Below, one piece after another: positions 29,122 through 40,726 of a stretch of 41,615 nt of DNA (positions are counted from its first letter, which is position 1; each line of letters starts with the position of its first letter). The notes under the pieces were generated by a model, which saw nothing but the letters and a program-made list of their open reading frames with translations, did not search any database and was not told the DNA's origin. Origin of the DNA: a virus. Lineage: Duplodnaviria > Caudoviricetes. The position numbers were made by a program, and so were the translations under genes. The DNA lies in the IMG/VR virus record IMGVR_UViG_3300027744_000042, positions 1 to 41,615 of that record; one strand, written 5' to 3'.

Positions 29122-29276
29122 TTGAATTTATTTTAGTTTATTCGTTCTTTGCTTCTTGTATGGCTATTGCTGCTTACTCTATTACTAATAAAACAGATTG
29201 GTTTGGGCTTTTGATTGTAAGTTTATTTTGGCCTTGGTTTCTTGTTGCTTCTTTATTTTCAATGTTAATTAAATGA
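29118..29276 (+). CDS. 52-aa two-TM membrane protein (not in the ORF track)
   Basis: MIEFILVYSFFASCMAIAAYSI...WFGLLIVSLFWPWFLVASLF; ATGA overlaps at both ends. Confidence 0.6.
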   Translation: MIEFILVYSFFASCMAIAAYSITNKTDWFGLLIVSLFWPWFLVASLFSMLIK

Positions 29277-29458
29277 CTGATCAAACTTTTATTCACTGTT
29301 CAGGTTACGTAGCTGCATCGGATAATGTGGCTCTATTGTGGGGTGGCCGCACAGCCGATGAAGGAACTGACTCTTGGAATGTGACATCTGGTGGTGGTCT
29401 GCCAGAATTACCTAGTCAATACGGCACTGCACCGGAGCTCAGCAATGAACCCTTCTGA
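29273..29458 (+). CDS. Chimeric or remnant ORF sharing its N-terminus with 29778
   Basis: First 36 nt 35/36 identical to 29778-29813. Confidence 0.4.
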   Translation: MTDQTFIHCSGYVAASDNVALLWGGRTADEGTDSWNVTSGGGLPELPSQYGTAPELSNEPF

Positions 29459-29699: not shown

Positions 29700-29712
29700 A
29701 AAGTAGATCAAT

Positions 29713-29740
29713 CGTCCTGAGTATGACGTAGAACTGTTCA
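29713..29740 (+). ncRNA. H-type pseudoknot leader, copy 2 (variant)
   Basis: CGTC/GACG and TGAGTA/TGTTCA with TAGAAC linker; stem 2 differs from the other copies but still pairs. Confidence 0.6.
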
Positions 29741-29777
29741 CCAAGGATGATAAGCTGAATGCTCTTTGGAACTGTTA

Positions 29778-29966
29778 ATGACTAATCAAACTTTTATTCA
29801 CTGTTCAGGTTACTACGATCAAAAAGGGCTTGCTTCCCTGATGCTCAGAATGCAATCTCATAACATCGTTATTGAGAACCTTTCTCAAGAAGATTTACAT
29901 GAGATTATGGGCTGTGTTTATGCTCTGCTTACTGCCAACGCAAACCTTGCACAACCTCCTGCATGA
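29778..29966 (+). CDS. Hypothetical protein
   Basis: ATGA overlap with the next gene. Confidence 0.6.
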   Translation: MTNQTFIHCSGYYDQKGLASLMLRMQSHNIVIENLSQEDLHEIMGCVYALLTANANLAQPPA

Positions 29967-30274
29967 ACTGTCCTGAATGTAAGTGGGTTACACACCGCAC
30001 AGTAGTAGTAACACAAGCTTTAGATGATCAAATTGTACGTAAACGTAAATGTTGTGCATGCCACCATGTTTGGTTTACTGTTGAAGTTGTTGTACCTAAT
30101 TATGCTATAGGTTGGTCGCCAGTGCATAAAGGTAAGCCTGTATTAAGAGCGCCTTTAACTATTACAACTTCTTTTATTGAAGCAAAGGATAGTCTTGTAA
30201 ATCTTACAATTGCACGTGAAAAACGTGAACAAGAATACATTGACAAACTAGAAGAAGAACTTAAAATTGTTTAA
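29963..30274 (+). CDS. NrdR-like zinc-ribbon protein (no ATP cone)
   Basis: MNCPEC...IVRKRKCxxCxxxWFTVE. Confidence 0.75.
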   Translation: MNCPECKWVTHRTVVVTQALDDQIVRKRKCCACHHVWFTVEVVVPNYAIGWSPVHKGKPVLRAPLTITTSFIEAKDSLVNLTIAREKREQEYIDKLEEELKIV

Positions 30275-30294
30275 AGAGTTTTAGCAAAAATATG

Positions 30295-30591
30295 TGTTAA
30301 AATTTCGTTGGTTCTGCAGACCCCAGTGGCCACTGGTTGGCGTACCTTTTGGTTCAGGCCCAATTGGTACGTCTGTATTTACGAAGAGTGTGAGTTCCAG
30401 GCCGCACCTGGTTAAGTTCCTATTGCGGAACACTCACACTCTTAAAAATTCTGTATTTAAAGTGGGGCGGGGTTGCACCGTGATCAATGGTACAACCCTT
30501 CGCTTACATGTCTCAGGAAACAACAAAAACTGAGACACCCCGGTAATACGGCCGTGACGTTGTTCTTCTTCCGACCAAAGAAATCTTAACA
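30295..30591 (+). ncRNA. Large multi-domain structured RNA candidate
   Basis: 19-bp closing stem, two related three-way junctions, 12-bp and 8-bp perfect stems; G-U pattern favours the + strand. Confidence 0.7.
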
Positions 30592-30694
30592 TGATTCCAC
30601 CTATTTCTTTGCTTTGGTTTCGCGCTACGGCAAAATGTTTTCGTGCTGTACCGCTTGTTGTGGTCAGCATTACTTGTATCTTTTTGTTAACAAA

Positions 30695-30982
30695 ATGACT
30701 TACGTAAATCCTAAAAAAAATCCAAACGCTTGGCTTGCCCAAACTTGCAAAGCACTGCTTAAGGACGTTACAAAAGAATCAAATGAAGCAGTGTGGGAAA
30801 TTGTAGATATCCTTATTGATTATGTAGAGCCTGGCTTAATAGATCAAGCGTTTGCTCCATCGATAGAGCAGTACATGGAGATTTTGGAAGAATACGAAAA
30901 GATGAATAATAGTTCTGCCCAGATGTATTTGCAAGTAAATTCTCGGGAAGTACAGGACGAATCCAATACTGTTCTCGAATAG
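30695..30982 (+). CDS. Hypothetical protein
   Basis: ATG 30695; 3' end overlaps the convergent gene. Confidence 0.55.
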   Translation: MTYVNPKKNPNAWLAQTCKALLKDVTKESNEAVWEIVDILIDYVEPGLIDQAFAPSIEQYMEILEEYEKMNNSSAQMYLQVNSREVQDESNTVLE

Positions 30983-39040: not shown

Positions 39041-39298
39041 ATGGGTGGAGCTAAAACTGATCTTAAAAAAGCACTCAAAACTTATGGCTGGGCACTAGAA
39101 CGTCACGGCACACGCCATGATTTGTACCGTAAAGCCGGTGAGTTGCTTTCAATTCCGACAGGTACAAAGATGTATTCAAGAGCTGTCATGAACATCATGC
39201 AGCAAATAAAAGGCAAAAGTAAACGTTTTAGTCTTCGTGTTCAGAACGAATTGCCTTGCTTTCAAGAGCACCCAACCGATTTACAAGGCCACGAATAA
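39041..39298 (+). CDS. HicA-like (dsRBD-fold) protein
   Basis: LKKALKTYGW..ERHGTRHDLYRK....SIP. Confidence 0.7.
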   Translation: MGGAKTDLKKALKTYGWALERHGTRHDLYRKAGELLSIPTGTKMYSRAVMNIMQQIKGKSKRFSLRVQNELPCFQEHPTDLQGHE

Positions 39299-40117: not shown

Positions 40118-40726
40118 ATGGCTGACAAACTATCCTTGATTCAAATTGCTGAATCAATCCAACACATCAGTTTTCTTAAAGATTTGCCTGACACAGGTGA
40201 AGATGAGCGTGCAACGCTTGAACAACACCTTAGTGACTTGGCTTCCCGCCAGGTGGCAAAATTTGATGCTGTTATTGGCATGATTAAAAAGTGTGATGCT
40301 TACATAGAAGCATTGCAGAATGAAATGGAAGAGGTTAAAACTAATCTTGATTCTTGGAAAAAGAATCGAGACAAAATAATTTCTATTGTTAAGTTTGCTT
40401 ATCAACAAGACTTGATTGATAGCAGGCCAACAGGTATTAAGTATCAAGCAACTATTAAGAAAGTTAAACCACGTTTGGTGGATAACTTTGATAACTGGAA
40501 TGAAGATGAACGTGCTGAGTTTGGCTTGAGAAAGACCACAACTGTTACACGCATCAAAGATAACGCAGTTATTGAAGTAAAACAAGAAGATCTTCCTGAC
40601 AAAGATCGCGTTCGCAACGAACTTACTATTGACTCAGGTTTAGCCCCAGTATCAGCGCAGTTGGTTCAGGGGTATTCTTTTGTTTATGAAAGGCGTAAGC
40701 GGTTAACAGCTCCTGATGCACACTAA
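40118..40726 (+). CDS. Siphovirus Gp157-like coiled-coil protein
   Basis: KFDxxxxMIK...coiled coil...PDKDRVRNEL...AQLV. Confidence 0.65.
   Translation: MADKLSLIQIAESIQHISFLKDLPDTGEDERATLEQHLSDLASRQVAKFDAVIGMIKKCDAYIEALQNEMEEVKTNLDSWKKNRDKIISIVKFAYQQDLIDSRPTGIKYQATIKKVKPRLVDNFDNWNEDERAEFGLRKTTTVTRIKDNAVIEVKQEDLPDKDRVRNELTIDSGLAPVSAQLVQGYSFVYERRKRLTAPDAH

Follow-up and report, generated by a model that had tools for sequence, protein, structure and literature searches.

Does an intergenic gap in a phage genome hold one structured RNA or two? The gap lies between the end of an NrdR-zinc-ribbon gene at position 30274 and open reading frames (ORFs) that begin at 30614, in the 41.6-kb virus record IMGVR_UViG_3300027744_000042. 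We analysed this record over its full 41,615 nucleotides and refer to it as the window. It carries terminase, portal, DNA polymerase and thymidylate synthase genes. The terminase has a single close match, that of the cultured Synechococcus phage S-EIVl (66.7% identity), and near-identical DNA was found in freshwater sequencing runs; the window is therefore likely to come from a freshwater, S-EIVl-like cyanophage. CP12, ferredoxin, transaldolase and DUF4278 genes beside homologues of the region also link it to cyanobacterial hosts. In an independent run a single contig covers 30150-30750 with three differences from the window, so the region is not an assembly artefact.

An earlier, sequence-only reading treated the gap as one plus-strand RNA of about 300 nucleotides, closed by a long stem and containing two similar kissing-loop three-way junctions (domains A and B). 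We arrive at a different answer: the region is likely two small structured RNA genes that face each other. Judged by sequence, the first, RNA-1, represents a new family that has no name yet and bears the signature of a multimer; the second, RNA-2, extends a known motif. We infer the transcription and the ends of both RNAs. The features are as follows.

30240-30267, plus strand: second sigma-70-like site, TTGACA-16-TAAAAT (11 of 12 matches; five sites found against 4.6 expected)
30295-30303, plus strand: predicted extended -10 promoter of RNA-1, TG-N-TAAAAT; the 5' arm of the supposed closing stem
30310 to about 30445, plus strand: RNA-1, an unnamed structured RNA (z = -4.9; 37 homologues; covariation)
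30310-30322, plus strand: palindrome 1, with an 8-nucleotide perfect core at 30313-30320, or 12 nucleotides with one bulged U
30323-30336, plus strand: palindrome 2, a perfect 14-mer; a hairpin with a self-complementary GGCC loop, or an intermolecular duplex
30339-30373, plus strand: variable hairpin, part of domain A; its sequence and length differ among homologues and the hairpin stays
30384-30443, plus strand: 3' three-way junction of RNA-1, equal to domain B
30583-30591, minus strand: predicted extended -10 promoter of RNA-2, TG-N-TAAGAT; the 3' arm of the supposed closing stem
30576 to about 30464, minus strand: RNA-2, a phage variant of CyVA-1
30550-30576, minus strand: hairpin P1, with a conserved 17-nucleotide purine-rich loop (30571-30555) and kissing segment 30564-30559
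30509-30537, minus strand: hairpin P3, with a 13-nucleotide U-rich loop (30529-30517) and kissing segment 30524-30519
30470-30498, minus strand: hairpin P4, with a palindromic UGAUCA (30486-30481) in its loop
590-4641: terminase and portal genes, distant from the RNAs at 30310-30576

Elsewhere in the window, a small plus-strand ORF at 39041-39298 is weakly similar to HicA-type toxins of bacterial toxin-antitoxin pairs. Two other small ORFs (29273-29458 and 29766-29966) have nearly identical first 12 residues; the 43 nucleotides before the second (29702-29744) match several other contigs, which suggests a repeated promoter or recombination cassette.

The two halves of the region occur separately. 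All eight loci reached through the downstream phage gene carry only the last 120 or so nucleotides, corresponding to RNA-2, and lack domains A and B (RNA-2 was recognized by profile in five and on reading in all eight). Of 50 phage records with RNA-2, 46 are counted as lacking RNA-1 and four have it strongly, while two more give a match at E about 0.005; these 50 come from 67 intended records, three of the other 17 are known RNA-1 carriers, and many records are fragments. RNA-1 is found without RNA-2 in S-EIVl and in one further record (L110). Where both are present, they lie on opposite strands in all 28 distinct loci and on the same strand in none; they are convergent, and 262-1492 nucleotides apart. 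The stem that was to close a single RNA is, as far as its letters tell, two similar promoters facing each other: each arm is a TG-N-TAARAT box with GG 6 nucleotides after it. The NrdR-like upstream gene was rejected as a carrier of the RNAs (0 of 24 loci), as was pairing of RNA-1 with RNA-2, for which the predicted gain is only -4.3 kcal/mol. Neither RNA was found to have an intrinsic terminator, and no partner protein gene travels with either among the neighbours examined.

What, then, is RNA-1? We collected 37 homologues, 31 with a pattern of promoter plus first palindrome (38 junction-bearing matches with near-duplicates removed) and six without it (L197, L420, L422, L423, L426 and S-EIVl); a weak match, L425, is left out of this set. 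Scans with the 5'-part pattern gave 14 viral and 71 metagenome loci, chance matches included. The pattern fixes palindrome 1 and its -10 box in 31 of the 37 sequences, and homologues of RNA-1, like those of RNA-2, share descent, so that counts are not of independent events. TANNNT is also found 5-6 nucleotides before the RNA-1 start in the six homologues obtained without the promoter pattern. A perfect 14-nucleotide palindrome, absent from the search pattern, is present in all 37 distinct anchored matches that have the 3' junction. Among the 22 anchored matches without the junction, five have this palindrome, all of them shortened or divergent, and 17 are chance matches.

RNA-1 is 135-180 nucleotides long. 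Its middle part is built of modules; the form in the window is short, without one hairpin and a linker that most others have. The 3' junction consists of a 12-bp closing stem, a CCGCA-loop hairpin, a UUAA linker and a UAUUGC-loop hairpin. The first hairpin has at least 4 bp in 37 of 37 homologues and the second at least 3 bp in 36 of 37. Replacement of the stems with pairing preserved is seen in L072, L426 and S-EIVl. Two-sided changes occur at 19 of 28 pairs in a 31-row alignment. A long-range helix suggested by RNAalifold, from the 5' end to the last hairpin, was discarded: its changes are one-sided only, and it fails in L423, L426 and S-EIVl, where a compensated local hairpin persists.

How do domains A and B fare against these homologues? 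Their helices, and a hairpin at 30462-30507, are in the window at the positions given for them. The partner strand of the domain A closing helix occurs in only 2 of 38 sequences, the window and a near-identical contig, and a strain variant at 30373/30375 weakens the helix. A kiss between two GGCC loops had been proposed for domain A; a second GGCC loop exists in 1 of 37 homologues. Of 14 type-I homologues, 7 could form the corresponding GCA/UGC kiss in domain B; it shows no compensatory change, and only its GC is invariant. The A/B repeat, read as tandem duplicated junctions, is not conserved in homologues, and a 9-mer repeat such as the reported CTGTATTTA also arises in 11% of 2000 shuffles of the region. 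Used as a search pattern, the shared A/B motif gave eight viral matches, none a homologue on inspection. The more general proposal of a novel phage structured RNA fared better: the RNAs look novel and a multimer is plausible, although the true kissing loop and self-complementary elements are not the ones it named.

RNA-1 has no match in Rfam, either in the window or in the homologous loci. A pattern made from the flanks of one domain-B contig matched nothing, and neither the region nor four of its homologues had a real BLAST match among GenBank phages. The literature searched, main texts outside most subscription journals, describes neither phage RNA-1 nor phage RNA-2. The RNA-1 model has one match in 151 cyanobacterial genomes; the contig that holds it is short, with a terminase gene ahead of the match, and is therefore likely phage DNA. 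A copy also exists, unannotated, in the cultured pair S-EIVl / Synechococcus sp. PCCC-A2c (KJ410740.1, about 40161-40316; E 7e-6).

Several observations concern the surroundings of RNA-1. A third conserved non-coding element of about 100 nucleotides lies directly behind it, up to the 3' end of a YRG/DUF4278-like gene, in 17 of 37 RNA-1 loci (L111, L113, L115, L116, L117 and L121 among them); it has no Rfam match and is absent between the window's two RNAs. In L072 (660-1211) an Asp/Asn beta-hydroxylase-family gene is inserted between RNA-1 and the YRG gene. The weak match to the RNA-1 model in L425 (1501-1669, minus strand; E 0.01) has two RNA-1 middle loops in the other order and is perhaps a related motif.

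The most telling feature of RNA-1 is the behaviour of its palindromes. Palindrome 2 is a perfect 14-mer in 36 of 37 homologues and takes seven forms, its centre switching among GGCC, GCGC and AGCU; in the remaining copy, L197, one pair is G-U when read on the transcribed strand. Palindrome 1 takes five palindromic forms among the 37, and the four forms other than the window's come from loci found without the anchor. In OLE and GOLLD the same switching, among GGCC, GAUC and AGCU and between GC and CG, is described at intermolecular bridges confirmed by cryo-EM, and covariation between palindromes served there as the argument for pairing between copies (PMC12286853). Pairing of neighbouring bases in a four-base loop is impossible inside a single strand, and so such covariation points to pairing between copies. 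Because symmetry-keeping switching is the signature seen at those bridges, RNA-1 likely multimerizes through its 5' palindromes.

Cofolding points the same way. The predicted homodimer gain of RNA-1 is -19.4 kcal/mol, versus -10.2 for shuffles, and 35 of 37 homologues beat their own shuffles; for the window's RNA-1 a palindrome-2 homodimer is predicted at -20.7 kcal/mol. We think intermolecular pairing of RNA-1 has somewhat better than an even chance of being right. RNA-1 has the self-complementary loops, covarying between palindromes, of a homo-multimer; the multimer itself is a cofolding prediction. With two palindromic sites per molecule, it could form a side-by-side dimer or open chains.

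Palindromic loops of ROOL and ARRPOF, like those of OLE and GOLLD, also switch among GGCC, GAUC and AGCU or between GC and CG, as do those of RNA-1, and ROOL and GOLLD are themselves phage-borne (PMC12286853; PMC12990946). RNA-1 differs from these four in size (135-180 nucleotides against 255-830) and has no Rfam match to them. It also lies outside a tRNA array and carries full 12-16-nucleotide tandem palindromes at its 5' end.

The palindromes might instead work at the DNA level, either as operator sites for a dimeric repressor or as cruciforms where transcription starts, or be ordinary hairpins; RNA-1 would then stay monomeric and bind a protein or ligand with its 3' junction. Protein-binding sites typically show dyad symmetry, and the palindromes sit directly behind the -10 box, at +1 to +27. 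Two homologues with an AGCU centre, moreover, gain no dimer advantage over shuffles. Against this, the sequence of the palindromes and even their length vary while the symmetry stays, the one imperfect copy has its G-U pair on the transcribed strand, and hairpins do not need self-complementary loops. We regard this alternative as unlikely without dismissing it, and continue with RNA-1 as a self-pairing RNA.

RNA-2 consists of hairpin P1 followed by a three-way junction with P3 and P4. The U-rich P3 loop is the A-rich loop of the sequence-only reading seen on the opposite strand; the TGTCTCAG/CTGAGACA stem assigned to that part is indeed present in the window where it was placed. Pattern scans gave 66 and at least 120 viral loci (about 180 estimated for the second), chance matches included. 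In 145 distinct cores the loop-loop helix between P1 and P3 has all six pairs, without exception and in 24 combinations; the filter left three of the six positions free, though the collection scans partly limited them. In 100 hand-picked loci aligned to our RNA-2 model, an alignment that favours the nested structure but whose model leaves out the kissing helix, 25 of 27 pairs show two-sided changes and pairing in the kissing helix reaches 100%. Paired cells make up 93%, versus 63% when shuffled and 38-56% in slid controls.

On which strand does RNA-2 lie? Read on the minus strand, the unconstrained kissing positions hold 11 G-U and no A-C combinations, and a strain variant at 30464 changes a P2 pair to G-U. 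TANNNT begins 17-18 nucleotides before loop 1 in 100 of the 145 cores, and 17 before it in the window. Wobble pairing and the position of the -10 box thus place the 3' half of the region on the minus strand. A coding role was rejected: the overlapping ORFs 30294-30533 and 30434-30742 are not preserved among homologues, as RNA-2 core lengths fall in all three frames (53, 50 and 42). The apex of P4 holds a 6-nucleotide palindrome in 52 of 145 cores, against 20 +/- 4 when shuffled, and lacks it in 93; 6-mer palindromes overall are not clearly enriched downstream of loop 2 (100 of 145 versus 88 +/- 6).

The earlier reading could match the region to no tRNA, tmRNA, RNase P or intron core. ARAGORN finds no tRNA or tmRNA, and no Rfam family, known ribozymes included, is reached at gathering score, which bears this out. 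The best of the weak Rfam matches lies on the minus strand and is to CyVA-1 (E 0.43; 17.5 bits, below the gathering cut-off of 41.4); two homologues score 26.1 and 20.4 bits. The RNA-2 loop agrees with the consensus loop of CyVA-1 at 15 of its 17 positions and is conserved in the 145 cores. CyVA-1, a motif described by Weinberg et al. 2017 (PMC5737381) and seen at low abundance in halite cyanobacteria (10.1101/761684), is classed by Rfam as an sRNA. Its 77-nucleotide model places the 17-nucleotide-loop hairpin in a 5' three-way junction with a 5' hairpin and closing stem. RNA-2 lacks that junction: in phage copies P1 comes first behind the -10 box, and the partner loop sits in the downstream three-way junction.

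Are the two nevertheless related? CyVA-1 is above cut-off in 17 of 151 cyanobacterial genomes. A U-rich partner loop is present in 18 of 24 cellular CyVA-1 loci, 39-102 nucleotides behind the first loop and outside the Rfam model; it was not found in three, and three were not parsed. The 6-bp complementarity covaries at further positions in these cellular loops. L127, a cyanobacterial locus found with the two-loop pattern, is itself above the CyVA-1 cut-off and has the partner loop. Given the shared loop, the partner loop in cellular loci and L127, RNA-2 is, on comparative sequence grounds, a phage variant of CyVA-1 (RF02965). In 4 of the 18 cellular loci (two paralogues) an A-to-G change in the helix accompanies U-to-C in the U tract, and five others with the same G keep U; this may hint at a base triple there, and at U-A-U triples in RNA-2.

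In cellular cyanobacteria the RNA-2 family occupies a syntenic chromosomal site. The RNA-2 model matched 2 of the 151 genomes, and a pattern scan of the genome collection gave 73 matches, mostly chance, of which six looked real by eye; three of the six are phage-type copies in contigs of metagenome-assembled genomes (MAGs). RNA-2-like copies also occur in an alphaproteobacterial MAG, abutting the 5' end of a tRNA (L148:845-1011), and in an Acidithiobacillales MAG, ahead of a hairpin covering a ribosome-binding-like site (L134:~1950-2050). Behind the partner loop, cellular CyVA-1 runs on into a further conserved multi-stem domain that is absent from the Rfam model (L387, L390-L394, L406-L408). 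Just upstream, on the same strand, lies a conserved membrane protein of about 230 residues without a Pfam match (L387, L393-L396, L399-L401, L404, L405); as a partner shared with phages it was rejected, having no match among phage neighbours.

RNA-2 could be a cis-regulatory leader or riboswitch aptamer for small inhibitors of host metabolism, such as CP12 and IF17-like DUF4278 proteins. In 68 of 145 cores it lies upstream of same-strand CP12-like (29) or YRG/DUF4278-like (39) genes, and some copies precede ferredoxin or transaldolase genes; these neighbours were screened by motif, and in Pfam all four CP12 candidates pass, while DUF4278 matches are below cut-off and one of three has none. The invariant loop bases would fit a pocket, and cyanobacterial DUF4278 genes are known under glutamine riboswitches (PMC6212724). 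Shortened copies, with the two kissing hairpins only, end 12 nucleotides before the start codon of related small ORFs (L198, L210, L219, L226, L245, L255, L257, L265, L278, L286, L299), possibly as a cis-acting form. The gene context is mixed, however: no gene follows the window's RNA-2 on its strand, and the genes behind cellular CyVA-1, an sRNA in Rfam's typing, are unrelated and lie in either orientation. Another -10-like box behind RNA-2 in 20 of 29 CP12 loci and a GTA-N8-TAC-like box in 37 of 39 YRG loci also speak against a leader, weakly, as one mismatch was allowed and there was no shuffled control. A role as leader is, we judge, unlikely. The cis-regulatory cyanophage RNAs wcaG, manA and PhotoRC-II and the glutamine riboswitches, structured RNAs that lie near host-derived metabolic genes, DUF4278 included (PMC9964418, PMC6212724), offer a likeness; the window and its homologous loci have no Rfam match to them, and RNA-1 and RNA-2 differ in having their own predicted promoters and variable neighbours.

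We return to RNA-2 acting in trans. The reading we favour, with moderate confidence, is of two separate non-coding RNA genes with convergent -10 promoters, a self-pairing RNA-1 and a CyVA-1 relative working in trans, both serving as protein decoys or scaffolds. Host sigma-70-type polymerase would transcribe both from the predicted promoters. Copies of RNA-1 would assemble through the two 5' palindromes and so display the conserved 3' junction multivalently, and RNA-2 would fold into a compact kissing-loop domain. During infection both would bind and titrate host proteins. The decoy function taken by itself is tentative, and we put it at rather less than an even chance.

One or both RNAs might instead be ribozymes or packaging RNAs. 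The phi29 prohead RNA, the multimer named for comparison, has a similar size, a three-way junction and complementary loops; the window's RNAs are likewise compact, with three-way junctions and complementary loops, and one bacterial copy of RNA-2 abuts a tRNA 5' end. There is no sequence match to the prohead RNA, however, and no Rfam ribozyme match; the RNAs adjoin neither terminase nor portal gene in the window, the RNA-2 family is not confined to phages, given its syntenic cellular site, and most RNA-2 phages lack RNA-1. We think this improbable.

As for a single RNA of about 300 nucleotides, the 307-nucleotide plus strand does fold stably (-112.6 kcal/mol, z = -5.7), with none of 100 shuffles equalling it, and 17 of 19 pairs of the stem 30295-30313/30573-30591 are present in the window. 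The sigma-70-like site at 30240-30267, inside the end of the NrdR-zinc-ribbon gene, could also start a longer, read-through transcript. That reading is nonetheless very hard to credit, since at least 15 of the 19 pairs are kept in 1 of 28 distinct two-RNA loci (the window itself; median 12), the domain A helix hardly recurs, and the halves occur alone and on opposite strands.

What would two such RNAs mean? Natural RNA multimers are few, large and of unknown purpose, and RNA-1, if truly one, is far smaller. Its two palindromes are a clear mutational handle, and the copy in a cultured phage-host pair would make the purpose of RNA self-assembly testable. Roughly half of the RNA is represented in the Rfam model of CyVA-1, from which the RNA's best-supported helix is absent, and CyVA-1 relatives are widely carried by aquatic phages beside host-metabolism genes. 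A bolder picture, speculative and in our view somewhat unlikely, is that RNA-1 is a new class of minimal self-assembling phage RNA that traps a host protein, its 135-180 nucleotides and two sticky sites forming dimers, rings or chains that concentrate the three-way-junction bait in infected cyanobacteria. RNA-2 would then be an 'auxiliary metabolic RNA' of host origin that phages keep next to CP12, IF17-like and photosynthesis genes.
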